Origin: a virus
Reading direction: 5' to 3' (one strand)
Length of the DNA: 64,000 bases
IMG/VR virus record: IMGVR_UViG_3300029723_000002
Span: 1 to 64,000 of that record
Within the stretch, counting starts at the first letter, position 1. Every line of letters starts with the position of its first letter. The position numbers and the translations under genes are program-made. Shown one piece after another: positions 1 to 64,000 of this stretch. The notes under the pieces were generated by a model. That model was not told the origin of the DNA. It ran no database searches and worked only from the letters and a program-made list of their open reading frames with translations.

Positions 1-381
1 TACTCTCATTTTTTCTAAGGTTCTATACGCCGTTTTAATAAGACTAAGAATTCTTGAAGAATCTTTTATTTCTTGATACTTTCTACAAGCTGCTCTAAAA
101 TCTGGATCATTTCACTCATCATCTGTTAATCCACTATCTTCTAATGCTGCTAAATGTCTTTCTTGCTCAAGATATTGCTGATAAGGACTTTTTCAATCTA
201 TCATCAGCCATATATACTTAAATTCTTTTCAAGCTCTTAATCTTTTTAAACCCTTTGGGTCCTCTTTGCATTTATTGCGTTCAGGATCTCAAAGGGTTTT
301 AAATTCATTAATTAACAAGATTCCATATTCATTTATGCGTAACGAACCAGTTGCGTTGTCATAAAGAAATATATCTTGCAT
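1..381 (-). CDS. hypothetical protein, 5' part only (gene runs off the window start); 5 in-frame TGA codons
   Basis: Minus-strand translation from ATG (plus 379-381 cat) gives MQDIFLYDNATGSLRINEYGILLINEFKTLWDPERNK...TAYRTLEKMRV with no TAA/TAG down to position 1. TGA is read as W. Not in the ORF track because TGA fragments it. Confidence 0.45.
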
Positions 382-431
382 TATTTTTTCTTGTTAAGTA
401 AACCTCCCAGACGATATATACCTAAATCTTT

Positions 432-1022
432 TCACCTTTGTTGGTAGAATTTATAATCAGGATGATTTTTTCCAACTACTATTTCCAGATCTGGAAGTGG
501 ATTAGAAACTTTAAAGGTAGTGTCTCCTGATGGACGTATATCTCGTTCAGTATACACACCTCCACTATGAACTCGGTCCATTTGTCTTCCCGAAGGAGAC
601 TTAACTCTCTGAAGAGTTCTAGTTCTGCCATCACCTAAGGATGGCAAAGCGGTGTGTGGAGCACGCCAATTAAAAGAATAATTCCAAGGTGTTAGAAGTC
701 ATTTTGACCAGGTTTTTACGCCGTCTTGACCTTTTATAATCTTAGCATTCTTTTTATTACATCCACAATCAGAAGTTTTACCTCCTTTTTTGTAACAGTT
801 TACTAAATAAGCTAATTTACCGCCTTTTTTAAAAAGCTCTGATTTAGGAGCTTCCGTTTCAGTTTTAAATTCTTCCATTAATCGACTTATTTCATTCATT
901 CCTTCTTTCGTTTTAGAGATTTGGTTTAAAGCAGAAACAATTTCTTCTGGAGATTTACCTTCTAATTCCTTTATTTTGGTCGGTAACCACTCAATAAAAG
1001 CTTTAAGCTCTTGTTCTTCCAT
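432..1022 (-). CDS. hypothetical protein; track ORFs 432..647 and 699..1022 fused across an in-frame TGA at 699-701
   Basis: The two track ORFs are in the same frame and separated only by TGA. Codons 648-698 were checked and contain no TAA/TAG. The real stop TAA at 1053-1055 separates this gene from the upstream gene. Confidence 0.5.
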
Positions 1023-1052
1023 ATTATATTGAATTATTTGACTTATTATTTA

Positions 1053-1340
1053 TTACTTGAAAAACTTAGGATCACAAGATCTAAAGTTCTTTTCAAGTTC
1101 TGTTAGTTTACCATCAAAGTGAATTAAATCTTTAGTTGAAAAAACAGCTTCTTGTAGATCCATATTAGTATTAAACCATCTACATTTAATTCCTTTAAAC
1201 ACATTATTTAATTCATCATTATGTTTAAAAGTTTTTGTAACTTTTTCAACTACATACATAATAGGAGCATTTAATTGTACATGTTTTAATGTTACAATAT
1301 CTCCTGGTTTAAAAAATGTTTTTTCAATTTCTTCAATCAT
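1053..1340 (-). CDS. hypothetical protein (95 aa)
   Basis: Track ORF. Its stop/start is tightly coupled to the neighbouring gene. Confidence 0.45.
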   Translation of the reverse strand: MIEEIEKTFFKPGDIVTLKHVQLNAPIMYVVEKVTKTFKHNDELNNVFKGIKCRWFNTNMDLQEAVFSTKDLIHFDGKLTELEKNFRSCDPKFFK

Positions 1341-1341
1341 A

Positions 1342-1863
1342 CTATTTATCTTTTTCTAATACTCGACATATAACATTTTGCTCACTTAGAGCATAATAGC
1401 CTCTAGTGTCAAACGGCACTGGGACGGCAGTGTTTCTATAATATATATCTTCGCCAACCTTAACATATTTACATTCAGGTCCAACTGATATAACATGACC
1501 ACATGCAATAAATTCTTCTGCATCTTCCTGTTCGCCACTTTCGTGTGATTTATATGTTCGATTAACATCAAATCCTCCAATTAATAAACCAGATGCTGAG
1601 GTTTTTAACTTTCTATAAGGATTTTTATTATATGGTTTTAAAATAATAGTATATCCTGTGGCTGCTAAATATTTATTATCACAGTTTTTTGCACCCTCAT
1701 TAAGTTCTACTAACCTAGCAGCTAAAGCGAGTTGCTCTTGTTCTTCTTGTTGTTTTAAGGTTTCTAATTCTTCTTTTGTAGGTTCAGTATTGTTTTTGAG
1801 ACCAATGCCCATATAATGGGTTCCTACGGCTTCCATGTGTGTGTTTCCTAAAATATTACTCAT
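1342..1863 (-). CDS. GroES-like co-chaperonin (Hsp10/phage gp31-like), tentative
   Basis: The pattern ILKPYNK...SGLLIGG...HESGE...GHVISVG...VKVGEDIYY...ICRV resembles the GroES mobile-loop and beta-barrel signature. Judged by eye only. Confidence 0.4.
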   Translation of the reverse strand: MSNILGNTHMEAVGTHYMGIGLKNNTEPTKEELETLKQQEEQEQLALAARLVELNEGAKNCDNKYLAATGYTIILKPYNKNPYRKLKTSASGLLIGGFDVNRTYKSHESGEQEDAEEFIACGHVISVGPECKYVKVGEDIYYRNTAVPVPFDTRGYYALSEQNVICRVLEKDK

Positions 1864-1890
1864 AATTCATAAACATTAAATTAAACATTA

Positions 1891-2160
1891 TCATAAATTT
1901 ATAATACAGTGTGCATTTTGCACTCTGGTCTTCGCGCTGATCCTGCATCCGCAGCCTCTTGTAAATCCCAATTTTGGTTTGTCTGAAACTTCTTTATCTT
2001 TATTAATATATAAATTAGGATTACAAATTGCACCAATTGGTCCCTCCTTATATAAGGGACAGGTTTTACAGATTTTTAATCTTTGTTCTGATAAAGATTC
2101 ATTTCTTCCTAAAACTTCATTAACATGACCATTAATTATATCTCCTACCTTCATACTCAT
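1891..2160 (-). CDS. small Cys-rich (zinc-ribbon-like) protein
   Basis: Track ORF with CKTCP...CGCRIS cysteine pairs. Confidence 0.4.
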   Translation of the reverse strand: MSMKVGDIINGHVNEVLGRNESLSEQRLKICKTCPLYKEGPIGAICNPNLYINKDKEVSDKPKLGFTRGCGCRISAKTRVQNAHCIINL

Positions 2161-3101
2161 TAAAATTTAATAGGTTTATCTCTATCTAGTTCTGTTTTGA
2201 TTTTTATCGATCTCTTATAATGCTTTAACATTCTCTCTACATCATCTTTAAGATATTCACATTTATATTCAGTAACTTTATTATTATGATCAGTGTGAAC
2301 TATCCTTAATGATTTAATTTTAAATTTTGGATTTATTTGTTTAAGTAAATAAGCGTATAACGACAACTGTAAAGAATAATGATAAAAATTACAATCCATT
2401 AAATTATTTAATGGAAATTTCATAGTTTGATATTTACGAGTCGTTTTATCAAAATAAGATTTTTGTTTTATTTCTCTATTAGTCTTGTAGTCAACAATAT
2501 AGACGTCATTCCCATCAATAATCAACAGATCTATTTGACCTGCAATACGTAATAATCCATCCTTTGACTTTACACTAATTAAGTATTCAGGATACACTCC
2601 TCTTGGCAGATCAAGTTTATAGTAACCTTTTTTACAAGTAAATTTTCCTCCTAGTCCAAATTTTTTTAAATCCTGTTCTTCTGATTTATAAAATTGATTT
2701 TCGTATTCAGCATGTATTTTAGTCCCTCTTTCACAAGATTTATTTTTTTCATCTTCATATCCCTGAAGGATTTCAGCTCGTTTGTCTTCAAAGACAACTG
2801 GATCTAGTCCCAACTTCTCTATAAGACTCGGATCTCATCTTTTTGTTGTTAATAAAACAGGCTTTAATGATGAAAAAATTTCAGGCTTTAGCAATGCTTC
2901 AGCAGCTTTATATGCTGATCAAAATGCTGAGTCAAATGGGTTAGTATAATTATGTATCAACGTAGTAACTGATACATAAGGAATATTATCTTGCTTATCT
3001 ATGTAGATATGTTTATCATCAGAATAAATAACATTATCATCCTCTTTATCTACCTTATAACCATTAACATATTTTACTTTTGCATTATCTAATTTAGGCA
3101 T
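2160..3101 (-). CDS. PD-(D/E)XK family nuclease (RecB/Cas4-like) with 2 in-frame TGA
   Basis: Motif GQIDLLIIDGNDVYIVDYKT (D...D/E-x-K). Track ORFs 2160..2813 and 2919..3101 are in the same frame and were joined through TGA at 2919-2921 and 2835-2837. Intervening codons were checked and contain no TAA/TAG. The start is ATG at 3099-3101. Confidence 0.55.
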
Positions 3102-3126
3102 ATTAATTTCGTTGTATTAAATATTT

Positions 3127-3735
3127 TATTTCACCGCTATCTGTATATAAACGTTGTACAATAGTTTCGACATCTATATCTTTGGGTATAGAAGCTCAAG
3201 TAACACCAAAAATTCCAATATCTTTTCCTGTATTATCCTTAATAAGAATACAAGCTAAATAAGCAACATTATTTTTAGCTAGTTGCTCATATAATACTCT
3301 ATCATACTTCTGTAATTCGTTTAAATCTCCCACAAATAAGTTATGATCCTTAAGATAATAAGGAAGATTTAGTCATGTTAAATTAAAATCATTGTATTGA
3401 GTTTGAACTGGTTCTAAATTAGAACGAGTTAACTCAAATCTCATTGTTCCATGTTGTCAGTCCATAATCCCATTATGGTACTGAATTATTCAAACGCGGT
3501 CTGCTCTATATTTATAGAGATATGTTGGAAGATTATTTTTAATTTGGCGATCTAATTCTGCTCTTTCATGTAGTTCAATATCGTGTTTTTCTATTACAAA
3601 CTTATTATACCTTTCAAATATATATTCAGGATCAAAACAAAGCCGTAAAGAAAAACTTAATATTATTAATAACATTGTAGCTTTAATAATATTAAACACT
3701 CCATATTGTTTTATATAATTTAAGAGAGTTCCCAA
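3127..3735 (-). CDS. hypothetical protein, about 202 aa, 4 in-frame TGA
   Basis: Track ORF 3490..3735 ends at TGA. Codon-by-codon extension continues to TAA at 3127-3129 (...LYTDAGE*). Confidence 0.45.
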
Positions 3736-3923
3736 TCAAGAGAGGCCAGAATCAATATTAGGTTGTTTTTTCATTATTATAAGTAATCATATTGTTAATC
3801 AATTTAATACTAATCGCAAATATACAACATATATAGCTATTATCCAAATAATTTAAATGTTTATTTGCAAATGAGTTATAGATTGGTTATCTTTGCATAA
3901 TAACAATTATAAATATATTTATT

Positions 3924-4199
3924 ATGAGATACAATAACGATATTTTAAACAAAATAATTTCTACAACATCAGAAAAAGTAGACAACAAAACTCATCTAGA
4001 TAATATTATGAATGGTTATCTAGAAATGATGAAGAAAGGCAGTAAAATTCATATCAAGAAAGCTAATCGTGGAAAATTTACTGCTTACTGTAAAGGAAAA
4101 GTGACCTCAGAATGTATTACAAAAGGTAAAAATTCTCCTGATCCTAAAGTTAGAAAGATGGCTACATTTGCTGCCAACAGTCGTAAGTGACATAAATAA
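3924..4199 (+). CDS. small basic protein
   Basis: Track ORF 3924..4190 ends at TGA. Readthrough adds WHK, then TAA at 4197-4199. Confidence 0.4.
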
Positions 4200-4450
4200 T
4201 GAAAAATAACTTCTTTATTAAGATGTTTACGGCACATTCAGGTTTATCAAGTAAACGAGTGTGTGGATTTATTGGATGGATAGTATGTCTTTTTATTTGT
4301 ATATGATGCACGATATATACTATTCAAGCACCTATAATTGCTGATACTTTATTTATCTGTAGTGCTGCTTTATTAGGAGTAGATGCTGTTATGAGACCTT
4401 TTTATAAACACAAAAACCAAAATGACAAAGAAGATAGTAAAGATTCTTAG
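4199..4450 (+). CDS. small hydrophobic membrane protein (holin candidate), 1 in-frame TGA
   Basis: ATG overlaps the upstream TAA. MKNNFFIKMF...GFIGWIVCLFICIW... Two hydrophobic segments. Stop is TAG at 4448-4450. It sits immediately upstream of the endolysin. Confidence 0.4.
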
Positions 4451-4559
4451 ATGAATTTGAGAATTTCCACAATGTCTACTAGGTATAGTTCTTATAAACT
4501 TATATAAAGCTCAGTATATTAGTACTTATAAGAAAATAGATTTCTATATTACAGATAGA

Positions 4560-4808
4560 ATGAAAGGTGGTATATCATGTGGTCTTTATGTAATACTACA
4601 TAAAGAATTATATGCTAATAAAAATAATATTCTGCATGAATGAGGTCATACTAAACAATCATTATATTTTGGATGATTATATCTTCCAATCATTGGATTA
4701 CGTAGTGGTGTACATGCACTAGTGCATAGTAAAGTCTGTAATAAACTACAGAAATATACTCATTATTGAACAGAAAAGTGGGCAGATAAATTAGGAGGAA
4801 TTAAATAA
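4560..4808 (+). CDS. small protein with 3 in-frame TGA (lysis-cassette member, function unknown)
   Basis: MKGGISCGLYVILHKELYANKNNILHEW... The stop TAA at 4806-4808 overlaps the ATG of the next gene. Confidence 0.35.
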
Positions 4809-5245
4809 TGTTAGCTAATAAATATTTTGATGTTAAAGAATTAGTTCCTAAAGAAGTATATGAGGAACTTGGAGATCAAGGATCTCTAAATTTATTAAAT
4901 CCTATTGCATTAAAAGCCTTAGAAGAGGTTAGAGAAATATTGGGTGTCCCATTAATTTGTAATAACTGAGCAGCTGGTGGCTCAAGAAATTATTGTGGAT
5001 ACCGACAAGAAAATTGCCCTATTGGAGCTAAAGCAAGCCAACACAAAAGAGGTAATGCATTTGACTTAATATGTAAAAGTAAATCAGCAAGACTTATGAG
5101 ATATGAACTTGAACAGAATAAATCTAGATTAACATATCCAATTAGAATAGAAAAATGAGATCAAAAAGGCAATGAAACAACGTGATTACATATTGATACA
5201 AAGAGTTTTACAGGAAATGGTAAAATTTATTTCTTCAGGGCGTAA
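4808..5245 (+). CDS. peptidase M15 family (zinc D-Ala-D-Ala carboxypeptidase-like) endolysin, 3 in-frame TGA
   Basis: The sequence NNW AAGGSRNYCGYRQENCPIGAKASQHKRGNAFDLI matches the Peptidase_M15 signature (G-G-x-R...S-x-H...G-x-A-x-D). The reading frame was checked through to TAA at 5243-5245. Confidence 0.65.
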
Positions 5246-5391
5246 ATATATCTGTAGAATATTAGGATGATTATTCTTATTCCTATTTATTTTTACTGTA
5301 AATTTATATTATTTAATTCCAATTAGTTGTTTAGTAATATCATTAGTATTTACTATCTTAGATGAATTAACACGTTTTAATGATAAAAATG

Positions 5392-5425
5392 AAAAAGGCA
5401 GTCAATAAGACTGCCTTTTGTTTTT
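5392..5425 (+). terminator. rho-independent terminator after the lysis cassette
   Basis: aaaaaggcagtc-aataa-gactgcctttt stem-loop followed by ttttgttttt. Confidence 0.6.
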
Positions 5426-5537
5426 ACTTATAATATAGATTCTTAAACTCATTTCATAGTTCTCATTGTCTCTGTGAAGCCTCTTTCTCTCAAGGTCTAC
5501 TTGCATAAGACTGTAAAGGAATCTGTTTCTTTCCTTT

Positions 5538-5978
5538 TCAAATAAAGTATAGTTTATTATCTTTTTCTTCCATTACTAAATCCCCTCTTTCATTCTGATC
5601 AAAATGAACCATTTCGTGACATATAATGGATTCTAAAGAGACTCCAGGATCTTCTCTTATAATTAAACTATAAGTGTGAGGAACTATGTTTTTATATAAA
5701 ATAGCTTGTAATTCTATATCCTTAGTTGAATATTTATTTAATATGCTATTATTAGAATATATTGTTATATTAGCTGTATCATACCCCATTATTTTATTTC
5801 CAATAACTTTCACTAAGTCAGTAATATCATAATCTCTTGGAGATTCAATAAGACTAGTTACTTGAAAGGTTTCAGGAAAGGTAAATGTATTTCTTTCTTT
5901 TTTCTTACTCATTAGTAGTATTATTAATATAATAAACAATATACCAATGATTATTAAAGGTATATATCAAGTTTTCAT
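5538..5978 (-). CDS. HExxH zinc metallopeptidase-like protein with N-terminal membrane anchor; 1 in-frame TGA near the N-terminus
   Basis: Track ORF 5538..5939 contains IICHEMVHF. In-frame upstream extension through TGA reaches ATG (plus cat 5976-5978): MKTW YIPLIIIGILFIILIILLMSKKK... Confidence 0.5.
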
Positions 5979-8200
5979 TATGGCCTCCTATAATTCATTC
6001 ATTTTGTTTGAAACTCTGGGAGATCTTTATTTATAGATTGTTCATATGGCATAGTTCCATCAATTAATCCTCGAATATAACCATATCTTAATCAATTTCC
6101 TCTTAATGTGTCTTTATTAAAGACTGTTTGTTCAGTAATTCATCGATTAACTAGATTCGGATCATTGTAATCAGAGTATTCCGAAAGTAAATTTAATGTA
6201 CCTCCAATTTTTGCTCCCATATATTTTAGGTGTAATAATGCTGATTGAAAATTTTCAGGAAGCTTATTTACATCTACATTATATTTTGCAGCAGTATCTT
6301 TTACTACTTGCCATTCACTGTCTACAGCTAACTTATCAATAAATTTAATATCATCTAATGATAACTCATTTTTTAAAGATCTCTCATAGATATCTGGAGC
6401 TTTCTCTTTAAGTAGTTTATCACTAACCCCATGACCAATCAGCATTAATCCATTTTTCGCATAATTCGGATCTTTATATCACGACAAATGCCTTTTTATG
6501 CCCTCAAATGATCCTATTTGTTGCTGAACAATATCTAAATCTAAATTTGAATAAGTTTTTGGAGCTTGTCAGTTTTTATTAGCTCTATCAAACGATTTTT
6601 GTTTTGGAGGTTCTATTGATGGAATAAATTTACCACTGTTCTGAAATTTAGGAATAATACCTCCTAATTTGGCACTTTTAACGTTATCGTTTTTCTTTAC
6701 AGGAGCCTTTGCTACATCATTTAATAAGAATAATAAAAAATCATCATTGTATCTATTAAATAAATCAGGATCTCCCTCTGATTTATAATGACGAAACATA
6801 GTAGCATCTTCTAAATGCCAATCTTTAGTAGATCCAGGATAAATCGAAAAATCAATTTTATCAACTACTTTAGCTACTTTCTTACCTGTATTGTTATTTT
6901 TAAAAGTATATCCATATTGTATTTTTTGAGTCTGTTTATCTCTAAACTCCTCAATTTCTTTCTCAGTAAAGACATGTGTGGGATCAATATTATGCTGTCT
7001 TCTAAATTGCATTAACCTAGAATAAATCTCAGCAGGATTATCTAAATAATCATCCTGAGAAACATGTATAGTGTGAATAGGTCTACGTTTCTCGTATTCT
7101 TTAATAGTGTCGATTATAAAATAAGGATTCGTAGAATGAGCTAATTCATGAGCTGCTATTTCACTTACAGGTACTTTACTATTAGCTTTTACAACTAAAT
7201 AGTGATCCTCTGGATTATAAAAACCTTCTTTATTTTCCATAAGCTTATCAGAAATATCGTACCTAAGTAACTTACCCAGAGGACCATTGACAACTTGTTT
7301 ATACTCTTCTTGTTCCTCGGGACCAGAGTTATATAAATATGTATCAACAGAAGTTAATCTGTCATTTAATCAATGGTATCCTAATGTTTTACTCTGTAAT
7401 CATTTTGGAAGTGATGACCGCTCTCATAGATTTTTATTAATAATATGTCTTCTTTTATTATACCAGTTAGTCATTCATTCTTGAGTCGACTCAATGTCTT
7501 CTCGATCTGTTCAGCGATCCTTAATTCTTCCACCTTCTTGTAACTTTTTTAGAATACCTCCTAGTTTAGAATTTTGTATCATCTTGTGTAATACAGACTG
7601 ATACTTAGGATCAGTAGCATAACCACCTCGTGCTACTCTAGATGCAAAATCATTCACAGATCCAGAAAATGCTCTATATCTCTTATTATTTAATAAGTTA
7701 ATCTTATAATTAGCATAATCTTCTAAAGAAGAAAAATCCTTAAATTCCTGATTTAATCTTATATCCTTACCATTAATAACTTCTCGTGTGCTAGCAACAG
7801 TACCTTTACCTTTGATCCCTCCAAAATTGAATAATCCAGAAGGCTTTTTACCTCAAGCTGATTCCAACCCATCTTGTGCTACTAAAGCCTTAGCAAATGT
7901 GGGATTTAATCCTTTTTGCCTTAGTAACCTTTCATATATAGGAGTCATTATTGATTTAAACTCTTCCTTAGAAGTAAATTTTTTAATCGGTTTCTTAACT
8001 AAAGACTGATATTCTTCTATGGGAGTTTCTTGTATACTTAAATCAATAGAAGACTCAACTGAATTTTCTTCTGGAATATCAGAAGCTTCTTTAGTAACTA
8101 AATATTTAGGAGTATATTCAGATACAGGAACAGGTCTGGATAAAGAATAGTCTGTATTAAAGCTGTCCTCTCGTATATAAGGTCTATATGTTATATCCAT
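5978..8200 (-). CDS. large virion-associated peptidoglycan hydrolase: N-terminal FlgJ-type glucosaminidase domain plus HExxH metallopeptidase-like domain; 741 codons with about 11 in-frame TGA
   Basis: Track ORFs 7853..8200, 6569..7240 and 6140..6445 are all in one frame. Every codon between them was translated and no TAA/TAG was found from the ATG (8198-8200, preceded by in-frame TAA at 8219-8221) to TAA at 5978-5980. The N-terminal stretch ...AQDGLESA W GKKPSGLFNFGGIKG...YRAFSGSVNDFASRVARGGYATDPKY matches the Glucosaminidase (PF01832-like) ESGWG...NN[LF]FGIK...YATDP pattern. The middle carries HELAH. Confidence 0.6.
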
Positions 8201-8261
8201 AATAATGTAGTTTATTAATTATCTTGCAAATATAATAATTAATAAACAGTATTGCAAATAA

Positions 8262-8540
8262 TTATATTATCTCAATAGTGTGAATTTTATTCAATTTTTC
8301 AAGTTCGACAATTCTTGTGTTAAGATTAGTAATATGAGATTCTTGCAAGTCTATTTTATTTTGTAAATAAGTAATCTGATCTTTTAAAGTCTTAAGCTCT
8401 TGTAAAACTTTTGATAAATCGATGGAAAGGGTTAGCTCATTTTTAATAGGATGTGTAGTTGTATCATAATAATAACTTGGAGTACTATAAGGATTCGAAG
8501 AATCTGAAAATAAATCTCCAATGTAACTGGTAGTAGTCAT
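8262..8540 (-). CDS. coiled-coil protein
   Basis: Track ORF with heptad-like LQELKTLKDQITYLQNKIDLQESHITNLNTRIVELEKL. Confidence 0.4.
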   Translation of the reverse strand: MTTTSYIGDLFSDSSNPYSTPSYYYDTTTHPIKNELTLSIDLSKVLQELKTLKDQITYLQNKIDLQESHITNLNTRIVELEKLNKIHTIEII

Positions 8541-8543
8541 ATA

Positions 8544-9287
8544 TTAAAAGTTAAATTTATGTAAATCTTGATTCTGTCGAAGAAGTTTCTCATTTTCTCT
8601 TTTTAATGCTAAAATTTCCTTCTTTAACATCTTAATATCTTCTGTATGTCTTTCTAATTGCTCTGTATGTTCATCAACCTTTTTATTAATGAATAATACA
8701 GCTTGACAAACTAAAGCTAAATCAACAAGCTTTGCAGTTTTTCTAAGTCCTGTAATCTTATCAAAAGCACTAGTCCTATTAGTAATTAATATACCTTTAT
8801 CTTCCAATTGTCTAAAGATCCTGGATAATACTTTAACACTCATATCCATCTTATCTGCTAACTCTCGATTAGAAGCTAAGGTAACCGCATACTTTCCATC
8901 AGATTTATTTGTATACTGTTGCATAGCTAATAACACTCCTTTTTCTTCTGGGGTAGTATTATCAGCTTCTAAAAATTCATAAGTAAATCGTTCAAAATAT
9001 TTACCTGTTTTTTGAATTTCATAAATATTACTTCTACCACGCTTCTTATCTAGTAATTTAATCTCTCCAGCATCTTGTAATTTTTTAATACTTGATTGTA
9101 CCGTGTTAACTGACACTCGTGCAAGATCAGCTAAAAACCTAAAAGATACGAAAGTCTGAAATGTATTTTTGTCCATGTACTTTCGCATATAACCATAAAT
9201 CAAATAATCTGTGGGACTCATTTTAATCTCTTTTGTGCTGCCCAGATTTCTAGGAACTTGAATGTGTTGTACATTTTTATTATCCAT
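8544..9287 (-). CDS. winged-HTH DNA-binding protein, replication initiator/regulator-like
   Basis: Track ORF. The N-terminal segment FLADLARVSVNTVQSSIKKLQDAGEI and a second ADKMDMSVKVLSRIFRQLEDKGIL look like two wHTH units as in Rep or transcription-regulator proteins. The gene lies next to iteron-like repeats. Confidence 0.4.
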   Translation of the reverse strand: MDNKNVQHIQVPRNLGSTKEIKMSPTDYLIYGYMRKYMDKNTFQTFVSFRFLADLARVSVNTVQSSIKKLQDAGEIKLLDKKRGRSNIYEIQKTGKYFERFTYEFLEADNTTPEEKGVLLAMQQYTNKSDGKYAVTLASNRELADKMDMSVKVLSRIFRQLEDKGILITNRTSAFDKITGLRKTAKLVDLALVCQAVLFINKKVDEHTEQLERHTEDIKMLKKEILALKRENEKLLRQNQDLHKFNF

Positions 9288-9391
9288 AATATGTTTTTAG
9301 TTTTATTTACAAATATAATAAAAACTATTTGTTGTATCAAATCTTTATATAACTTTTTAACAAAATGACAAGAATATCTTATAAAGTTAGT

Positions 9392-9487: not shown

Positions 9488-9558
9488 ATAGTACTATATA
9501 TCCTCCTGGGGTCGGATAGATCTAGAGTTAAGTCTTCAGACTTAAACAACGCTGAGTT

Positions 9559-10960: not shown

Positions 10961-11027
10961 TCTCTTTCTTTTTTCTACTAAATCTACTATTTGTTACGTA
11001 GATTATAATCTCAAAACTTATTACGTC

Positions 11028-54463: not shown

Positions 54464-54478
54464 TTAAAATAGCTAATA

Positions 54479-55440: not shown

Positions 55441-55459
55441 CAAGTATATATGCTAAGTT

Positions 55460-55681
55460 ATGGAAACCCTAAATATTAGAGATTACATATGCTCCTATGA
55501 TACATCTGTAGAAGCAGCAAGAAAAGTTGTAGATAAGATTATTCAATGGTGTAATAAGTACGAATGTACTGGAGGAGAAATGCTTTGTCAAAATGATGAT
55601 TGTATAATTGAAAGTCCTTATCTAGTTGCAGACATTATTGATAATATACTTAAATTTGGACATAAGTTAAATGATGATTGA
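55460..55681 (+). CDS. hypothetical small protein
   Basis: Track ORF. Confidence 0.35.
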   Translation: METLNIRDYICSYDTSVEAARKVVDKIIQWCNKYECTGGEMLCQNDDCIIESPYLVADIIDNILKFGHKLNDD

Positions 55682-55958
55682 GGAAATTAATCATATATAT
55701 GTAATTCCAAGTTATAAGAAGGAGTATTTTATTTTTCCACAAACTGTTGAATACGACACACTTAAATACTTGATCGATATGGGTTTTATTTGTATTGTTG
55801 GAGGATTTATTAACAGTAGTAAATTACAACCTATATGTCTATATAATAGATATGTTCTAGATAAATACAGGAAGTGTGATCTAGTGTCTATACCTGAAGA
55901 TATGAAAGAATTTTGTATTAAAGATGTATATGGTTTTGAACAATTATCAGATGATTAA
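55671..55958 (+). CDS. paralog-like small protein
   Basis: YFIFPQTVEYDTLKYLIDMGFIC. Confidence 0.4.
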   Translation: MMIEEINHIYVIPSYKKEYFIFPQTVEYDTLKYLIDMGFICIVGGFINSSKLQPICLYNRYVLDKYRKCDLVSIPEDMKEFCIKDVYGFEQLSDD

Positions 55959-56691
55959 CTTACCAGATACGATTAAAAAAATAGGATTCTTAGGTGACGA
56001 ACATGGTAATCTAAAACATATTAGATATATTATCAATAGTTATCATTTAACTGATACAGTTCTGTTTTTATGTGGTGATGTTGGTTTAGGATTCCAACCT
56101 AAATGAGAAAGGTCTATAATAGATTATATCAATAAAAAATTGGTTATCACAAACTGTTATGTAATTGGAGTTCGTGGTAACCATGACGATCCAAGTCAAT
56201 TTCGGGATACTGAGTTAGTTAAAGCTAATGGCAATCCTAGGAACTGGTTAAATGTTCCAGATTATACTGTTGTTAATGTATGTAATAAGAATATCTTGTG
56301 TGTTGGTGGAGCTACATCGATTGATCGTAAATATAGACTTGCAAATGGCTGGGGTTATTGGGAAAATGAATCTCCAATTTATAAACCTAAATTAGAAGAA
56401 CGTATAGATATTATTGTTACACATAGTGCTCCTTCTTTTTGTTTTCCTCAGATAAAAAGTGATATTGTTTATGAGTATGCAAAGTATGATGAAACTTTAT
56501 TAGATGATATTTCTAAGGAAAGAATGGTTTTTGATAAAATATATGAGGATTATAAGGACACAATAACTGACTGGTTTTACGGACACTATCATCAGTCTCA
56601 TTTAGAGCAAATAAATGGAATTAATTTTCGTTTACTAAATATAGAAGAATTTTGTGAATACCGCTCCACAGATAATTACAATATATTGTAA
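55924..56691 (+). CDS. calcineurin-like metallophosphatase (Ser/Thr phosphatase family), 1 in-frame TGA
   Basis: GFLGDEHGNL (GDxHG) and GVRGNHD (GNHD/E) motifs. Track ORFs 55924..56106 and 56140..56691 were joined through TGA at 56104-56106. Confidence 0.5.
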
Positions 56692-56983
56692 AATTTGTGC
56701 TATTGAAGAAGGTCAATATACAGCAATTGTTGTAGAAGATTTAAATAGAGATTATACAGATGATCTCAAATATGTAACTGTTATAAAGTTACCAAACTGA
56801 GGCTCTTCTATAATGCAGGTTGGAGACATTGGTTATCTTCAATTTGAATCTATAGAAGGTGGAGTTACTCAATGATTTAACAAATCATCAGAAGATTTTG
56901 AAGTTTATAAATATAATAATAATTATTTTATAAACTTTTTTATACAAAAAGATAAGAATAATATGAAAGAATTTAGTTTTTAA
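56654..56983 (+). CDS. hypothetical small protein with 2 in-frame TGA (start uncertain)
   Basis: ...ICAIEEGQYTAIVVEDLNRDYTDDLKYVTVIKLPN W GSSIMQVGDIGYLQFESIEGGVTQ W FNKSSEDFEVYKY..., with TAA at 56981-56983. The nearest in-frame start is GTG at 56654. Confidence 0.3.
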
Positions 56984-56984
56984 A

Positions 56985-57822
56985 TATGAATACAGAATTT
57001 GGTGAAAAATTGCAGAGTGCAATGAGCTCTATTGATTCCTTAACTTGGAGAGATAAACAAGGTAATATTGTAAAATTAGTTGACGCCTCAAAAGAAGAAT
57101 TGCAGAAATGATATAACCATTGCTGGGAAATGCTTCATAATGAGAGTCTTTATAATCCAGGAAAAATTAAGATTAGAAAGAATATTCATCTTACTTGAGA
57201 TGCTTGTAATACTGAACTATTTGTCAGATATTTATTGCACGAATGTAATACTGAACTAAAAACTAAAAAAGACATATTAGATTATATTAATTCTAAGAGA
57301 ACTACTGGCGATCAAGATATTCTAAATGAGTCTATTGCTATTTTGTTTAGTGGTCTTCCTCCCATTTTTGAGAAAGTAACTGTTAATAGGTTAATGGATG
57401 CCTGCTTTGATAAATTAGACGTTCTTAACAAGAAAATGATTTCGGATAAATTTATCTGGTCTCAAGGAATTTGATTAACTGAGGAAGAAAAGGCAGAATT
57501 AACCGAGATTATGCCTGATGGTAAAATCAGAAATAGAATGGAGGTTATTAAGGAAAGATTAGCAGGATATGTTAATGCTGATGTTAAACTTAGGATCACT
57601 CCGACTGGATTAACTTTTGCTGAGTTTCGTTCTCTTGTACAACTACCACCTCTTCCTAAAATCAGCTCATTATCAACAGTAGCCCTTAAGACATTGAGGG
57701 ATAAAATCCTGTTATTATTAGATAATGATCTTGATTATCATATTAATAAATGGACAACACTTATTAATAATATTGAAAGAGTTGCGGAGTTTAAAAATTA
57801 TCAATTAGTAACTAAGAATTAG
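56985..57822 (+). CDS. hypothetical protein (278 aa), 3 in-frame TGA
   Basis: Starts at ATG 56985 (MNTEFGEKLQSAMSSIDSLTWRDKQGNIVK...) and runs in frame through track ORFs 57235..57474 and 57511..57822. Confidence 0.45.
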
Positions 57823-57917
57823 TATATAATATTGAAAGTTAATAACTTATAATATAAAACTTATTAAACCATTTTTAGTAAGTTTCTTTAATATTTCTAT
57901 AAATTTTCGTATCTTTG

Positions 57918-59144
57918 ATGGACAGAACCGAAAGACAAAAAGTAGGAATAAGACGATGAATTGATGGGGGTGGAACAGGCACTCTTGCTTGGAGTACGGG
58001 TTTAGGTAAAACTTATGCTACAATGCTCCTAATAAAGGAATTACATAAGGCGAATCCCACCTTAGTTGTTTTAGTCGCGGTTCCTACTAATGTGTTAAAA
58101 GAACAATGAGTTAGAGAGTTGGTCAAATACCAGCTCTTTTCTGTCTGTAAGGTAGAAGTCTTTAACACTATTGTAAAACATAGTTATACAGTTGATTTAT
58201 TTGTAATAGATGAGTTACATAATGCTGCTAGTCCTGTACATATCTCGATGTTTGAAACAGTCAAGTACAGGTATTTTTTAGGCTTAACTGCTACGTTTGA
58301 ACGATTAGATGGCAGACATAAATTATTAGAACAGTACACTTCAATTTGTGATAAAATTACTATAGAAGAAGCTGTTCAGAATAAGTGACTATCTGATTAT
58401 CGAAACTACAAGGTAATACTCGATGTTGATCTGACTAAATATAATGAATGAAATCAAAAGTTCCAGTCATTATTTGCTTTATTTGATTTTAACTTTGATT
58501 TAGCTATGAAGTGTGTTCAAAGTCCAAGAATTGCAGCTTTATATGCTAAAAAACTTGGAAGAACACTAAAGGAAATAAGAGGCATTGCCGCTGCCTGAAT
58601 GAAAATGTTACGTAATAGAAAGTCCTTTGTAATGTCTCACCCTAAGAAGCTTGAAATAGCAAATAAAATTTTAGATGCTCGAAAGGATAAAAAGTGTATT
58701 ACATTTTCAGCTACAATCAAAGATGCAGAACAATTTAAATCTAGAGGAGCTCTTATACTACATAGCAAACAGAAGAAACAAGAGAATAAACAGATTATTG
58801 AAACCTTTAACAGTCTAACTTCTGGAGTGTTAAGTACTTCAAAATCTGCAGATGCTGGTTTAGATGTTAAAGGGTTAAGTGTAGGAATTATTCTTAGTGG
58901 TGACAGCTCTAAAACACGTACTACACAGAGGATCGGAAGAGCAATTCGTCAGGAGGAAGGCAAAATAGCAGAAATATTTACATTGGTTATTAGTAAAAGT
59001 ATTGAGGAGAACTGATATTCTAATGCTAATGTAAATCAACAGTATATTACTATAAATGAGAATCAATTAGATATTATACTTAATGGTGGAGAAGTGTCTA
59101 CTAAAATAAAGAGAGGTATTGCTGATACAAAATATAGATTTTAA
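57918..59144 (+). CDS. SF2 (DEAD/DEAH-like) helicase (408 aa), 6 in-frame TGA
   Basis: Motif I GTGLGKTYA. Motif II LFVIDELHNA. Motif III GLTATFER. Motif VI TTQRIGRAIRQ. The frame was checked from ATG 57918 to TAA 59142-59144 and includes track ORFs 58119..58388 and 58599..59015. Confidence 0.55.
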
Positions 59145-59189
59145 ATAAAAGATCTAACGTATTACGTTTGTTTACATTAACGGTAATAA

Positions 59190-59771
59190 ATGGAGTTAGA
59201 TACAATAATTAATATAATAACTCAATATAATTTAACAGGAGATGAACTCTTGTTAATTTATTTAACTCTTTGTGCTCAGGATGGTCATCCTGAGTATTTT
59301 GCAAAGTGATTCAATGGTGGAGGTCAAACAAAACTAAAGGATCTCTTTATTTCTTTAAAAGAAAAAGGAATAATACACAAAAATTATGATCCTTCGTCTT
59401 ATATACCAGATGAAATTGAATTTAATAAAACTTTTTTAAAACGATATTTTAAACTGGCTGGGGAGCTAGGTAGAGAGTTATTTGAGGCTTACGAACCATT
59501 TATTAAAGTTAATGGAGCATTATACAGCTTAAAAAACTACTCTAAAAAGTTTTATTCTCTTGATGAATTTTGTTTTTGATACTCTTCTACTATTGGACAC
59601 AGTGTAGAAAAACACAAAAAGATAATTGAAATCCTTAAATGAGCTAGAGAAAATAACTTAATAAATATAGGCATCTTAGAATTTGTCAGTTCACATAAAT
59701 GAGTTGATTTAGAAAAACTGAGATTAGAAGGATTCAATAAACAAACTATCAGTTCTATATATCTTGACTAA
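59190..59771 (+). CDS. hypothetical protein (193 aa), 4 in-frame TGA (replication-module member)
   Basis: MELDTIINIITQYNLTGDELLLIYLTLCAQDGHPEYFAK W FNGGGQTKLKD... The frame was checked through to TAA at 59769-59771, which overlaps the next ATG. Confidence 0.4.
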
Positions 59772-60910
59772 TGTTTGGAGTTGATAATTTATTTGAACAA
59801 ATAGAACGAGGTAGAGAAGGGAAAAATATTGGTTTGAGTACAGGAATGCCAAAAATGGATAGTTATACAGGTGGTCTACAAAAAAGCTGCTATACTCTAA
59901 TTTTTGGCTTGTCTGGGAGCGGTAAGTCCAGCTTTGTGCTATATACTCATATATATAGGCCGCTAAAAGATTATCCAGAAAAAAATATTAAACTAATTTA
60001 TTATTCTCTTGAAATGAGCGAAACTGTTTTATTAGCTAAGTTATTGTGTCTTTATATTTATGAGGAATATCATTATGTACTAAGCTATAAGGATATTATG
60101 TCTTGATCTGAAATACTAGATGACGAATCTTATGAATATGTTAAAAAAGGCAAAGCTTGGTTAAATTCGATTTCAGACAAGCTCATTATTTATGATAAAG
60201 CTTTAAACTCGAAGTTTTTTTATAAATCAATGAAGGACAATCTTGAACGTTGAGGGACATTTAAAGATTCGCCCGATGGAAGAAGAACAATTTATGTTAA
60301 AAATGATCCAGAACAGTTTGTTGAAGCAATTATTGATCATATAGGTTTAGTAAGACCATCACCAGGTAGTACTAAAAAACAAGAAATTGATGAATTGTCA
60401 ACATATGCAGTATCATTAAGGGAAAAATGTTCATGCTCTTTCTGTGTGTTAATGCAAGAAAATAGAAATTCTTCTGATATGGATAGAAGAAAAGCTGATT
60501 TAACAGAAAGCAGTGCTGAAGATATCAAGGATTCAGGTAACCCATATAATGATTCAGAAGTATGTATTGCGATATATAATCCATTAAAACATAAATTAAC
60601 TTCTCATAGAGGATATCCAATTATTGTTGAAGACAGTCAACCAGGAGCATTTATTGGTCTTAGAGATCGATATAGATCAGCCATTTTAATTAAAAATAGA
60701 TTTGGAGAGGCTGATAGATTAGTTCCATTAAATTTTTTTGGCGAAATTGGACTCTTTAAAGAACTACCAAAAGTTCAAGAATGTTCAGACTGAAAAGATT
60801 ATTGTTATTTAAAAGATAACATTAGAAAAAAGAATAAGGAAGAAAAAGATTCAACTACTAAAGAAGTAGAAGTAAAAGATAGTTCAAAAAAGTTAACATA
60901 CAGTTTTTAA
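59771..60910 (+). CDS. DnaB-like replicative helicase C-terminal (RecA-fold) domain protein (379 aa), 3 in-frame TGA
   Basis: GLSTGMPKMDSYTGGLQKSCYTLIFGLSGSGKSSFVL matches the DnaB H1/Walker A region. Continues in frame through track ORF 60395..60793. Confidence 0.5.
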
Positions 60911-60912
60911 AT

Positions 60913-62756
60913 ATGGCTATCGAATTACCAAAAACAAAAATTCCTGCAGCAACCCAAGATCCTAAGTATCTGATTCTCTTTGGTTTGCCAAAGGTCAATC
61001 TGGCCCATTAGTTTAGTAATAGACTAAGTTGTATCGGGGAAAGTCGATGAATGCTAAAATTTTCTTACTTTGGTATTGGAATATACGGAAAATTTAACTA
61101 TATTTGTGTAGTTAAATTAAAAATTATATGAAAATAAACCAATTAAAGTATACAGAACAAGAAATTAAAAAGTTTGGTGAATATTATAAGTTAGGCCATT
61201 CTTTAAAAGAAACTGCAGAATATTTTAATGTTAATTATCACACATTAAAACAAAATTTGATACGATTTGGATATAGAACTCCAATAAAAAAATTAAGTAA
61301 CCAAAGAGTAACTAGTATTACTTATTTTGATTGTATTGACACTCATGAGAAAGCCTATTTTTTAGGACTGTTATTTGCAGATGGATACATTTCAAAAACT
61401 CCTTATGGAGTTAATATTGGAATTGCTCTTCAGTTACAAGATAAATATATCTTAGAGCATTTAAAGAGAGAAATTAATGTGTCAAATAAAATTTCAGATT
61501 ATAAAAACAGTTCAAAATTTTCTGTAACATGCCAACATATGTATAAGATACTAAGGAGTTTAGGGATAAAAGAAAATAAATCACATCTAGATTACAAAAT
61601 TCCTAATATTGATGAAAATTTTATCAATTCTTTTATACTTGGATATTTTGATGGAGACGGTTGTATAACTATAAAATCTACGGGCTATAGCGTTGTTTCT
61701 ATTTGCTGTAACTCTAAATTATTTTTAGAAGATATACAAAAATATTTAAATAAGTTAAATATTGCAACCCGACCTATTACTACAGAAAAAAGAATGCATA
61801 ATAATTTATTTGTTCTATATCTTTCAAAGAAAGAAAATCAGTTAAAATTTATGAATTTAATTTATAAAAATAGTAATATATTTTTACAAAGAAAATACCG
61901 TAAATTTTTGCAAATATCGAGCTAACTATTATAATAATATATAATAGTAGTGTAACGCGTAGGAAGTGAACCTGTTTTACAGAATATAATCTTCCCAAGA
62001 GTCTCCGAAACTTTTATTAAAAGTTTAAAATGTACGCTGAACTTATAGGAAACTATAAGAACTATAGGATAAAAAGCCTATAGGATAACAATTTGTGGAA
62101 AAACTACAATTTTAAGCACTCTAGAAAATAATCTAATTTTAGATACTGAATCAGGAAGTGATTATATTGATGCTTTAAAGGTTAAAGTATCTAGTGTAAA
62201 GGATATTAAGGAAGTTTGTAAAGCTATTATTGAGGCCAAAAGACCTTATAAGTACATTACTATTGATACTGTTACTGCATTGGAAGAAATTGTTAAACCA
62301 TTAGCCCTTAATTTATATAAAAACTCTCCTGTATTTGGAGAGAGGTTTGCTGATATAACTGATGTTACTGCTCTTCCTAATGGTCAGGGATATATGTGAA
62401 GTCGACAAGCTCTTGAAATGGTTATTGACATGGTATCTAAATGTGCTCCAAATATTATTTTATGTGGTCATGTTAAAGATGTATCATTAAATGAGGGTCT
62501 TGATGGCAGTGTTAAGGATTTAGACCTGACAGGTAAAGTTAAACGTATTCTTTCTGCTAGAAGTGATGCTATTGGTTTTTGTCATCGCGATACTAATGGT
62601 AACCTTTGTATTAATTTTGGTGGGGATGGTGAGATCCTTACTGGTTCAAGATGTCAACACCTAGCAGGTAAAGATATTATTGTAGCAGAGCGTCAGGAAG
62701 ATGGTTCATTTGTTTCACATTGGAATAGGATTTTTCCTTCATTAAGCAGTAAATAA
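60913..62756 (+). CDS. Sak4-like (AAA_24/RecA-like) recombination ATPase, split gene: exon 1 60913..60995, group I intron, exon 2 62096..62756; 1 in-frame TGA in exon 2
   Basis: Exon 1 is MAIELPKTKIPAATQDPKYLILFGLPK(gt|). Exon 2 is (t)GKTTILSTLENNLILDTESGSDY... The splice restores the Walker A GLPKVGKTT. The 5' exon ends with U and the intron ends with G. Confidence 0.55.
60996..62095 (+). mobile_element. group I intron carrying a LAGLIDADG homing endonuclease
   Basis: Its 5' segment resembles that of the intron at 53263 (caatctggccca... against agatttctgcctggct...). Shared core motifs gtgtaacgcgtag (61955) and aaaatgtacgctgaact (62029). Ends ...gataacaatttg. Confidence 0.55.
61128..61925 (+). 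CDS. intron-encoded LAGLIDADG homing endonuclease (265 aa)
   Basis: Two LAGLIDADG-type motifs: LLFADGYISK and ILGYFDGDGCITIK. Confidence 0.65.
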   Translation: MKINQLKYTEQEIKKFGEYYKLGHSLKETAEYFNVNYHTLKQNLIRFGYRTPIKKLSNQRVTSITYFDCIDTHEKAYFLGLLFADGYISKTPYGVNIGIALQLQDKYILEHLKREINVSNKISDYKNSSKFSVTCQHMYKILRSLGIKENKSHLDYKIPNIDENFINSFILGYFDGDGCITIKSTGYSVVSICCNSKLFLEDIQKYLNKLNIATRPITTEKRMHNNLFVLYLSKKENQLKFMNLIYKNSNIFLQRKYRKFLQISS

Positions 62757-62758
62757 TT

Positions 62759-63214
62759 ATGTTAAAAATTTCTTTTGATTTTGATGAAACAACTAATTCA
62801 GTTACTAATGTTAAGGTTGTAAAAACCGCATCAAAATTTGAGAATTTAGACCTACCTATAGTAGAATTGGGAGATAGTAAGTTAATTATGTCTCCTAAAA
62901 CAATTGAGTTGTTATCTGCCCAAATTGGGGATAGAATATCAGTAAATTATATTCAAAAAAATAACGAACTCACTTTTCCTGTGATAGGCAAATCTGAAGT
63001 ATTTACAGATAAAGAAGCAGGAAATAAATTAAGTAAGACAAACACAGTTTCATTTAGAGGATCACAAAAAACCTGTTTATCTCAATATGGCAACTTATTT
63101 AAATTAGAAGCCTTAAGGTCAGGAGTTTTTAAAATGGTTAAAATTGAAGAATCAGAATTGTCTGAAGCTGATCCTGAATTTAAAGAAGAAACTGAAATTT
63201 TAAACACAATTTAA
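62759..63214 (+). CDS. hypothetical protein
   Basis: Track ORF. Confidence 0.45.
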   Translation: MLKISFDFDETTNSVTNVKVVKTASKFENLDLPIVELGDSKLIMSPKTIELLSAQIGDRISVNYIQKNNELTFPVIGKSEVFTDKEAGNKLSKTNTVSFRGSQKTCLSQYGNLFKLEALRSGVFKMVKIEESELSEADPEFKEETEILNTI

Positions 63215-63230
63215 CTAAATTATAGAATTT

Positions 63231-63902
63231 ATGAGTATGTTCAATCTTGGTGGTGTAAAAGACGCCCGTGTAGTAAGTACTAATTATCTTAAACCTGGTA
63301 TTCATCAAGTTGTATTCAAAGGAATCCAAAAGGCAGAAATGTCTGATGCAACTATAAATGCTATTGAACTTCAATTTGAAGCAGTAGATGGTAGTGGGAT
63401 TCATAACGAACGTTTATTTGAACCTCGTTCAACAGAACGTGTTCCTAATCGATTTAATCCTTCTAATGAAGATCCATCACAAGCTGAACAATTTATGGTA
63501 AAAATTAAGCAAGTGATTGAAGCTTTAGACCCAGAATTAGGAAAACAAATTAATGAAAATGGTGAGAAATTTTCAGCTCCTGATTTTAATGGGTTTTTGA
63601 AGCTTCTGAAGAAATATTTGGACCCAAAAGTAGGCACTAAAACTTATATTAAATTAGTTCCTAATGGACGTTATGCAGGATTTCCTGGATTCCCTGCTCG
63701 TTGCTCAAAAGATGGAGGATTAATTATTACAACTACATTTATAGGAGAAAATTTGGTTCTCTCTTCTTATGAAAAGACACAAATTGATAATGCTTTAGCA
63801 GCTAAACCCACTCCTATGGGTACTAAAAATGAACTTGATGATTTAAAAGAAGCATTTCCTAGTGTAGACTCAGGTGATGATTCTGATGATTTGCCTTTCT
63901 AA
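63231..63902 (+). CDS. ssb: single-stranded DNA-binding protein with acidic C-terminal tail
   Basis: The C-terminus ...SVDSGDDSDDLPF matches the SSB amphipathic DDD(I/L)PF tail. It sits in the replication module after the helicase and Sak4 genes. Confidence 0.5.
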   Translation: MSMFNLGGVKDARVVSTNYLKPGIHQVVFKGIQKAEMSDATINAIELQFEAVDGSGIHNERLFEPRSTERVPNRFNPSNEDPSQAEQFMVKIKQVIEALDPELGKQINENGEKFSAPDFNGFLKLLKKYLDPKVGTKTYIKLVPNGRYAGFPGFPARCSKDGGLIITTTFIGENLVLSSYEKTQIDNALAAKPTPMGTKNELDDLKEAFPSVDSGDDSDDLPF

Positions 63903-64000
63903 AAAAAAAATAGTTTAGGTGGAATATACGTTAGAACCGATTATTATAACTAAAGACCTAATTCTAAATAAAGTAAGTGAGGAGACCTTAATGGAGCACT

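Follow-up and report, generated by a model that had tools for sequence, protein, structure and literature searches.

This analysis concerns a 64 kb stretch of viral DNA with a GC content of about 30% (positions 1 to 64,000 of IMG/VR record IMGVR_UViG_3300029723_000002; hereafter, the window), within whose apparent genes the stop codon TGA recurs very unevenly. The unevenness is real and strong. We propose, with a probability of roughly 0.8, that the phage reassigns TGA to tryptophan (Trp) by means of its own suppressor tRNA(UCA) and that its genes fall into three translational tiers: a long early-type block, block C, that could be translated before the suppressor is present, and two further blocks, D and A, that would need it. 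The division into suppressor-independent and suppressor-dependent genes is the published model and the established explanation for this group of phages, and it is not new here. A divergent strand switch at about 10.5 kb separates mostly minus-strand genes on the left from plus-strand genes on the right, the cumulative GC skew has its minimum at about 10 to 12 kb, and the window divides as follows (counts are of in-frame codons).

1..10443, mostly minus strand: block A, late-type recoded genes; 44 TGA and 10 TGG (TGA share, 0.81).
10444..10615, no strand: the divergent strand switch, at which recoded genes give way to TGA-free ones.
10616..12819, plus strand: block B, a GC-richer island (GC, 0.36; GC at third codon positions [GC3], 0.34); 2 TGA and 7 TGG, with no confirmed internal sense TGA.
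13683..50134, plus strand: block C, early-type genes readable in either code; 21 TGA and 101 TGG, with 14 of the TGAs in three islands.
50137..63902, plus strand: block D, a replication and nucleic-acid block; 34 TGA and 24 TGG (TGA share, 0.59).

Open reading frames (ORFs) were bounded by TAA and TAG only and scored with a codon model that was trained on the long ORFs and was blind to both TGA and TGG; a non-overlapping gene set was then picked by dynamic programming. This calling gave 106 genes and 17,385 codons, among them 101 in-frame TGA and 142 TGG codons. In-frame TGA was present in 36 of the 106 raw ORFs and in about 30 after curation (approximately 28 to 34%), clustered in blocks. The initial annotation of the window had claimed such clustering, with whole groups of genes avoiding TGA, and this is borne out when the codons are counted per Trp position: conditioned on the Trp codons of each gene, heterogeneity in TGA versus TGG gave G = 226, compared with a permutation mean of 102 (standard deviation, 12; maximum, 149), and none of 20,000 permutations reached the observed value. 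A uniform TGA:TGG ratio was thus not seen. After doubtful N-terminal extensions and the last 10 codons of genes were trimmed, G was 201 against 88 ± 11. Along the genome, the Trp codons fall into 46 runs, against an expectation of 96 (z = −7.6), and a 4 × 2 table of the block counts given above yields a chi-square value of 73.5 (p = 7e-16).

TGA makes up 0.81 of the Trp codons in block A, 0.59 in block D, 0.07 in block C outside its three islands, and 0.93 within the islands. Base composition does not explain these differences, since GC3 is 0.18 to 0.20 in blocks A, C, and D, and the A-ending share of the other purine-ending codons (Lys, Glu, Gln, Leu [TTR], and Arg [AGR]) lies between 0.73 and 0.91 in the same three blocks, with no shift that parallels that of Trp. 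Taking the A-ending share of 0.78 as the neutral expectation, block A is indistinguishable from it (p = 0.62), and its genes are mutually homogeneous (p = 0.07); block D has a significantly lower share (p = 0.001); block C, its islands aside, is far lower (probability of at most 7 TGA among 107 Trp codons at 0.78, 8e-57); and the island genes, with 93% TGA (n = 15), are not significantly above it (p = 0.22). The pattern therefore has three tiers (approximately 0, 0.59, and 0.81). The suggestion in the initial annotation of suppressor-independent and suppressor-dependent genes, in place of a uniform code-4 genome, is supported by the sequence, but not as two classes.

As judged by comparison with homologues, in-frame TGA in the window is read as Trp. 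Relatives that do not recode TGA have Trp opposite the window's TGAs 65 times, Phe 45 times, Leu 10 times, Tyr 6 times, and Met 5 times, and they have mostly Trp opposite the window's TGG codons. Glycine never stands opposite TGA (0 cases), which excludes code 25. For the RNase H of block D, displayed alignments to three solved RNase HI structures place a Trp from one or more of these structures opposite three of its four TGAs (the rWV, DLW, and WVKGH positions). Coding coverage at the loci of the TGA-recoded clades is 0.87 to 0.96 under code 4 and 0.57 to 0.69 under code 11. The same observations bear on the simplest alternative, that the TGA-bearing ORFs are fused or spurious frames produced by ignoring a real stop. 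Some of the raw ORFs do fit that description: those at 19735, 27404, and 41034 are over-extended, and ORF 19352..19621 is without a homologue. Against it, homologues continue across the TGA positions and have Trp or aromatic residues there, family matches run over full lengths, coverage is about 0.9 under code 4 and 0.6 to 0.7 under code 11, and the statistics survive trimming of the gene ends; we regard the chance of a gene-calling artefact as negligible. IMG/VR holds contigs of 106 to 160 kb at 95 to 99% identity to the window and wider family contigs of up to 160 to 178 kb, and both block boundaries are spanned by independent contigs, so the window is not a chimeric assembly. A megablast search of GenBank phages with 49 kb of the window found no nucleotide-level relative, just three matches of 38 to 110 nucleotides, and single-protein searches with the VWA and AAA proteins returned near-identical relatives only.

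Block C encodes DnaJ-domain, SPFH, and radical SAM proteins, two AAA ATPases, HAD and HD proteins, and MoxR/CobS-like and VWA/CobT-like proteins. The following features of the block bear on its TGAs.

17705..18217, plus strand: TGA-rich island 1, an HNH homing endonuclease (Pfam HNH and HNH_3); 3 TGA and 0 TGG.
19352..19621, plus strand: TGA-rich island 2, an 89-codon ORF; 4 TGA and 0 TGG.
41118..41480, plus strand: TGA-rich island 3, a GNAT acetyltransferase; 6 TGA and 1 TGG.
43736..44551, plus strand: an early-block gene with one conserved in-frame TGA and no downstream alternative start; 1 TGA and 3 TGG.
32850..32855, plus strand: a TGA-TAA tandem ending the early gene 32658..32855; relative L069 has TAA at 32850..32852.

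Outside the islands, block C has about 100 TGG codons, and the only confirmed internal TGA is at 43778..43780. Seven TGAs remain there in the raw calls. Spurious N-terminal extensions of ORFs 19735 and 27404 account for two and the final 1 to 10 codons of three short genes for four; the seventh, the confirmed codon, is codon 15 of the gene 43736..44551. Among the islands, the GNAT gene is polymorphic for TGA and TGG in comparison with relative L003, and the upstream part of the raw ORF that begins at 41034 is really tRNA-Gly (41031..41102). Island 2 has no family match or homologue, and whether it is a real gene is uncertain. The TGA-bearing coordinates of the initial annotation hold (1..8200, the lysis genes, the HNH genes, 41118..41480, 43736..44551, and 50137..62756); a further TGA-rich ORF, that of island 2 (4 TGA, 0 TGG), lies inside the TGA-free block. 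The Rep-like gene 8544..9287, given as TGA-free, indeed has 0 TGA but also 0 TGG and is therefore uninformative, and the LAGLIDADG gene (61128..61925) likewise has neither TGA nor TGG.

Apart from the spurious extensions and the codon at 43778..43780, the remaining TGAs of blocks B and C all fall within the last 1 to 10 codons of their genes and appear to behave as stops; two of them stand at stop positions backed by a second stop. The block B TGA at 12319..12321 is followed directly by TAA, and three close relatives have TAA in its place; the tandem at 32850..32855 is the corresponding case in block C. It does not follow that every TGA-TAA tandem is a stop, and this was ruled out: in block A, 11 relatives have Trp opposite the TGA of the tandem that ends 1888..2160. 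Also in block A, a TAG-recoded clade has TGG where 3924..4199 carries a TGA near its end, indicating a sense codon for Trp. A further tandem (50344..50349) ends 50137..50349, the first gene past the suppressor tRNA region, and is common to L001, L003, and L073; its TGA could be either a C-terminal Trp or a stop. Two other observations concern blocks B and C. Directly 3' of the gene 43736..44551, a perfect 9-bp GC-containing hairpin with a T-run (44553..44573) looks like a bidirectional terminator. In block B, the proteins of 11330..11854 and 12349..12819 have similar N-termini and look, unaligned, like paralogues; a Pfam scan of 11330..11854 gave no match.

The contrast between blocks C and D is also visible among close relatives. 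Three relatives that are 95 to 97% identical and cover 37.5 to 59 kb of the window were compared with it; they are related to one another, so the comparisons are not independent. In block C outside the GNAT island, a single TGG-to-TGA change was found in about 85 codon comparisons, whereas the same relatives had A in place of the final G in 20% of G-ending codons for Lys, Glu, Gln, Leu, and Arg (P ~ 1e-7, an approximate value given the relatedness of the genomes). Block D showed nine exchanges between TGA and TGG, in both directions and at about the background rate. On this comparison, TGA is actively kept out of block C by selection and is near-neutral in block D. Ordinary codon bias, in which a scarce tRNA decodes UGA slowly and highly expressed genes avoid the codon, would fit the graded look of block D at 0.59. 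It fits poorly with block C, where the absence is all or none (one gene apart, none of its roughly 100 Trp codons is a confirmed internal TGA), with the lysis and packaging-side genes being the richest in TGA, although expression in phages tends to be strongest for late genes, and with the lack of a parallel shift in other A/G codon pairs. We consider codon bias a highly unlikely explanation.

Wider comparison, with clade loci anchored on the exonuclease of block A, suggests that recoding in this lineage is old and driven by the phage. TGA recoding of this same region is common to the clades whose exonucleases are 99%, about 70%, and 59% identical at the protein level. A sister clade (L033 to L042 and L060; exonuclease 52 to 56% identical) is TAG-recoded and uses TGA as a stop: its coding coverage is 0.83 to 0.92 with TAG as a sense codon and 0.44 to 0.51 otherwise, 10 of the 11 loci checked carry a tRNA(CUA), and its TAG codons again cluster in blocks (the largest ORF, for instance, has 21 TAG and the exonuclease 0). 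That this clade is simply not recoded was considered and ruled out by the coverage. In relatives found through the DnaB-like helicase at 37 to 41% identity, the helicase region is in the standard code. Because the sister clade recodes TAG and has its own tRNA(CUA), the recoding would come from the phage and not from a code-4 host. A code-4 host such as a Mollicute, with the TGA-free blocks as recent DNA from standard-code phages, has in its favor that TGA as Trp and low GC are typical of code-4 organisms and that the genome is a mosaic with many mobile endonucleases. However, the codon usage and GC3 of block C match those of blocks A and D, TGG-to-TGA changes in block C are selected against among genomes that are 95 to 97% identical, the phage carries its own tRNA(UCA), and TGA stands at stop positions in blocks B and C. 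The sister clade recodes TAG with TGA as a stop, the TerL of relative L006 is probably of the crAss-like type, and the predicted hosts of Zeta crAss-like phages are Bacteroidales and Firmicutes (PMC12386605). In-frame TGA in approximately 28 to 34% of genes is also well short of the roughly 90% found in phages of recoded hosts (10.1101/2021.08.26.457843). We judge a code-4 host to be very improbable.

The proposed decoder of UGA lies at the boundary between blocks C and D.

48693..48764, plus strand: suppressor tRNA(UCA), anticodon at 48725..48727 (ARAGORN; Rfam tRNA, 53 bits).

On the same strand as its neighbours, the gene follows the VWA gene and precedes block D, the recoded replication block, by 1.4 kb, and it is kept in L003. 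It has a G1-U72 pair and the discriminator base G73, the latter being a major identity element for bacterial Trp-tRNA synthetase; its D-loop resembles that of tRNA-Trp. The tRNA would probably be charged with Trp by the host enzyme. Neither a release factor nor a Trp-tRNA synthetase was seen among the approximately 55 window proteins scanned or read, and ARAGORN and Rfam detected no tRNA-Trp(CCA) among the tRNAs of the window.

Two of the three near-identical relatives, L001 (11953..12699) and L002 (8522..9268), whose contigs are the same as L078 and L079, carry another allele of tRNA(UCA) at the syntenic site. This allele has A1-U72 and G73 and is split after U34 by a 675-nucleotide insert, and it is overlooked by ARAGORN at default settings. 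The insert encodes a PDDEXK_5 endonuclease (I-Ssp6803I type) whose ORF starts ATG GAA AAA TGA; since its fourth codon is TGA, the endonuclease would need the spliced tRNA for its own translation. By its appearance, the insert may be a group I intron. An Rfam search over 1.3 kb at the L001 insert gave no group I intron match, and a search with the ORF-free 3' part gave only a sub-threshold match to LOOT RNA (E = 0.09). An exact-match scan of IMG/VR with the 5' exon of the split allele recovered only the L001 and L002 contigs, a result from which its prevalence is not readable. If split suppressors are common, they would explain the apparent lack of a suppressor tRNA in most TGA-recoded phages and would add a splicing step to the code switch. 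That the suppressor gene is generally a regulated and often hidden component, making the three TGA tiers a graded, multi-stage translational programme in place of a single on/off switch, is a tentative idea that we think rather unlikely.

Taken together, these features suggest the following order of events. Blocks B and C (10.6 to 50.1 kb, plus strand) would supply the auxiliary and host-takeover genes, all of the tRNAs, and a transfer-messenger RNA (tmRNA). Without internal TGA, their genes would give the same proteins with or without suppression, and unmodified host machinery could for that reason translate them right after infection. The suppressor tRNA is the last RNA gene of the TGA-free block; as it accumulates, UGA would come to be read as Trp, and full-length products of block D (59% TGA, just downstream of the tRNA) and block A (81% TGA, on the opposite strand) would depend on it. 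We infer an early-then-late timing and a host with the standard code.

The role of timing itself may be questioned. In a constraint-only explanation, the suppressor mainly harms the host through UGA read-through, TGA drifts neutrally in genes made later, and the genes needed early stay TGA-free. The TGA share of block A agrees with this (0.81 against a neutral 0.78, p = 0.62; genes homogeneous, p = 0.07), as does the free interchange of TGA and TGG in block D among near-identical genomes, and both Yutin et al. (PMC7886860) and PMC12386605 have suggested an anti-host role. It accords less well with the report that lysis-related families significantly prefer the recoded codon (Borges et al., 10.1101/2021.08.26.457843) and with the 93% TGA of the early-block homing endonucleases and GNAT gene, though n is 15 and p is 0.22. 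The neutral share of block A leans toward tolerance plus early-gene constraint, and the published lysis-gene statistics lean toward timing; we see constraint without timing as possible, though not the probable answer.

Other points count against our reading of suppressor-dependent tiers. The conserved TGA at codon 15 of the early-block gene 43736..44551 is a true exception, and the lone TGG-to-TGA change in the early block falls in L001 at codon 92 of a HAD_SAK_2 gene (39662..40144), so the constraint against TGA in block C, though strong, admits exceptions. The polymorphism test draws on three related, non-independent genomes. The TGA share of block A is neutral, with no sign of positive selection for TGA, and its nuclease-type genes (exonuclease and EndoVII/HNH), together with the recoded replication genes, mean that the split is not simply one of structural and non-structural functions. 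The labels "early" and "late" are drawn from gene content and position only. A sigma-70 promoter scan of 40 to 52 kb found 64 sites against 66.6 in shuffled sequence and was uninformative, and k-mer counts in 48 intergenic gaps revealed only tRNA T-loops and no class-specific promoter motif.

The recoded late functions are the endolysin, the hydrolase, the lysis-pair membrane protein, and, beyond the window, the TerL of relative L006. The main genes of block A, which also encodes a GroES-like protein, are as follows.

2160..3101, minus strand: PD-(D/E)XK exonuclease (family match).
4383..4808, plus strand: lysis-pair membrane protein; 6 TGA and 1 TGG.
4808..5245, plus strand: lysis-pair endolysin (PHROG 894, E = 2e-20); 3 TGA and 0 TGG.
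5978..8200, minus strand: peptidoglycan hydrolase of 740 amino acids with an endolysin-like domain (family match).
8544..9287, minus strand: Rep-initiator-like gene; 0 TGA and 0 TGG, and hence no Trp codon.
9559..10443, minus strand: EndoVII/HNH gene; 2 TGA and 0 TGG.

In L006, which extends past the left edge of the window, the same strand continues with a split TerL and then more large ORFs (19 TGA and 5 TGG). TerL is divided there into two ORFs with a LAGLIDADG ORF between them (13306..16748 of L006, approximately 0.2 to 3.6 kb past the edge), and all three contain TGA; the LAGLIDADG ORF may be either an intron or an intein-like insertion. The large ORFs after TerL are taken to be putative portal and tail-fibre genes.

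Block D contains the following genes.

51948..52388, plus strand: RNase H; 4 TGA and 0 TGG.
53385..54239, plus strand: HNH gene; 3 TGA and 1 TGG.
55924..56691, plus strand: metallophosphoesterase; 1 TGA and 4 TGG.
57915..59144, plus strand: SNF2-type helicase; 6 TGA and 1 TGG.
59771..60910, plus strand: DnaB-like helicase; 3 TGA and 1 TGG.
61128..61925, plus strand: LAGLIDADG gene; 0 TGA and 0 TGG.

Relative L072, whose DnaB-like helicase is 75% identical, has several exact TGA positions in common with the window. In the gap after the HNH gene, 38 nucleotides (54318..54355) are identical to the crAss-like phages cr7_1 and cr131_1; this stretch may be a target or a remnant of a mobile element.

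ARAGORN identified 12 tRNA genes and a tmRNA, Rfam added three tRNAs, and a relaxed ARAGORN search recovered tRNA-Phe(GAA) (40672..40745) among others, for a total of 16 tRNA genes. All 16 lie within the TGA-free block (16065..48764), the suppressor being the last. The set comprises Leu (two), Arg (two), Pro (two), Gln, Thr, Asn, Ser, Cys, Phe, Gly, UCA, and an odd CAU/AUA-type tRNA; this last (20738..20820) was called with a 4-base anticodon. The tmRNA is recorded here.

28856..29264, plus strand: tmRNA (Rfam RF00023, 73.4 bits, E = 1e-26; ARAGORN).

It is kept in L068 and L069, where its T-arm shows compensatory changes. At 31 codons, the tag predicted for it is longer than usual; it ends in AYAA and has TAG as its stop. 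The tmRNA belongs with the set of translation-related RNAs, and any tie to recoding would be hypothetical. A term search of the Zeta crAss-like paper PMC12386605 returned no mention of tmRNA.

The window is probably about 64 kb of a crAss-like phage genome of 160 to 178 kb that belongs to the Zeta group, an assignment based on the terminase of a relative, the extent of the related contigs, and the many homing endonucleases. In pairwise comparison only, the named and annotated matches of the C-terminal part of the L006 TerL were crAss-like phages and their terminases, which are about 28% identical to it; higher scores (41 to 49%) went to three human-gut "Bacteriophage sp." records that lack annotation. 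Like the Zeta group (e.g., Lera PV725988 and c815351; 145 to 192 kb), the window has a GC content of about 30%, relatives with contigs of 160 to 178 kb, and an origin in human-gut metagenomes. It also shares SNF2 and DnaB helicases, AAA ATPases, and many tRNAs, as well as dense homing endonucleases and split genes (HNH at 9559, 17705, and 53385; LAGLIDADG at 61128; the L006 TerL; the L001/L002 tRNA), and it has opal, amber, and standard-code lineages at short distances. According to PMC12386605, the Zeta genome c815351 is opal and carries a TCA suppressor. Unlike published descriptions of the group, it has the tmRNA and, in its relatives, the split suppressor allele, neither of which is mentioned in PMC7886860 or PMC12386605.

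Block-wise recoding is already known from Zeta-group and other gut phages (PMC7886860; 10.1101/2021.08.26.457843; 10.1101/2022.06.29.495998; PMC12386605), and block-structured stop-codon recoding in phages is also credited to Ivanova 2014 in papers that cite that work. Reassignment has been found to be mostly confined to late genes, with Zeta branches that reassign TAG, TGA, or neither (Yutin 2021, PMC7886860). In the phages described by Borges 2021 (10.1101/2021.08.26.457843), early genes are in the standard code, structural and lysis genes are recoded, replication genes are variable, and intron endonucleases of the early region prefer TGA; in-frame stops occur in 26 to 71% of genes in phages of standard-code hosts and in about 90% for recoded hosts. 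In the phages described with Mgcod (Pfennig 2022, 10.1101/2022.06.29.495998), early blocks are dual-coded, the code changes where the coding strand does, and suppressor tRNAs sit at the 5' end of the recoded strand; the paper gives TGA as 80 to 90% of Trp codons in true code-4 genomes, a range that block A matches.

The window resembles these block-recoded phages in having TGA as Trp, its own suppressor tRNA ahead of recoded genes, a dual-readable early block, and an A/B code switch at the strand switch (10444..10615). Its lysis and packaging genes and homing endonucleases are likewise the most recoded and its replication genes variable, and close lineages of its family switch among TGA, TAG, and the standard code. 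It differs from them in that a second switch (C/D) occurs within one strand, directly after the tRNA, that the replication block is intermediate (0.59, significantly under neutral), and that no "code-change module" of release factor and Trp-tRNA synthetase was seen among the approximately 55 proteins scanned or read. The Agate and Jade phages (Borges et al.), compared by description only, are also large code-4 gut phages with recoded structural and lysis genes, an early-region group I intron endonuclease that prefers TGA, and a suppressor tRNA in a standard-code context; the RF1 and Trp-tRNA synthetase module of Jade was not seen in the window. Phages of TGA-recoding hosts (code 25 Absconditabacteria and Gracilibacteria; code 4 Mollicutes) likewise use TGA as a sense codon, but there about 90% of genes contain it, whereas in the window approximately 28 to 34% do, in blocks, with TGA as Trp and never Gly and with a tRNA of the phage's own. 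Our additions to this picture are modest: the three-tier gradient, direct evidence of selection, TGA-TAA tandems where relatives have their stops, and, in sibling genomes, a suppressor allele that is split.

For annotation, the standard code fragments about a third of the region (coverage of 0.6 to 0.7 against 0.9 under code 4), and plain code 4 adds short false tails to a few early genes. For the biology of these phages, the window would serve as a clean example of a phage that shifts the meaning of a codon in the course of infection, with early genes that the host can read and replication and lysis genes that would need the phage tRNA. The pattern is compatible with TGA as a timer and also with TGA as merely tolerated in late genes. 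Early genes kept free of TGA by selection, next to late genes at the neutral ratio, bear on whether recoding works as a timing device or is only a tolerated by-product of a suppressor with harmful effects on the host.

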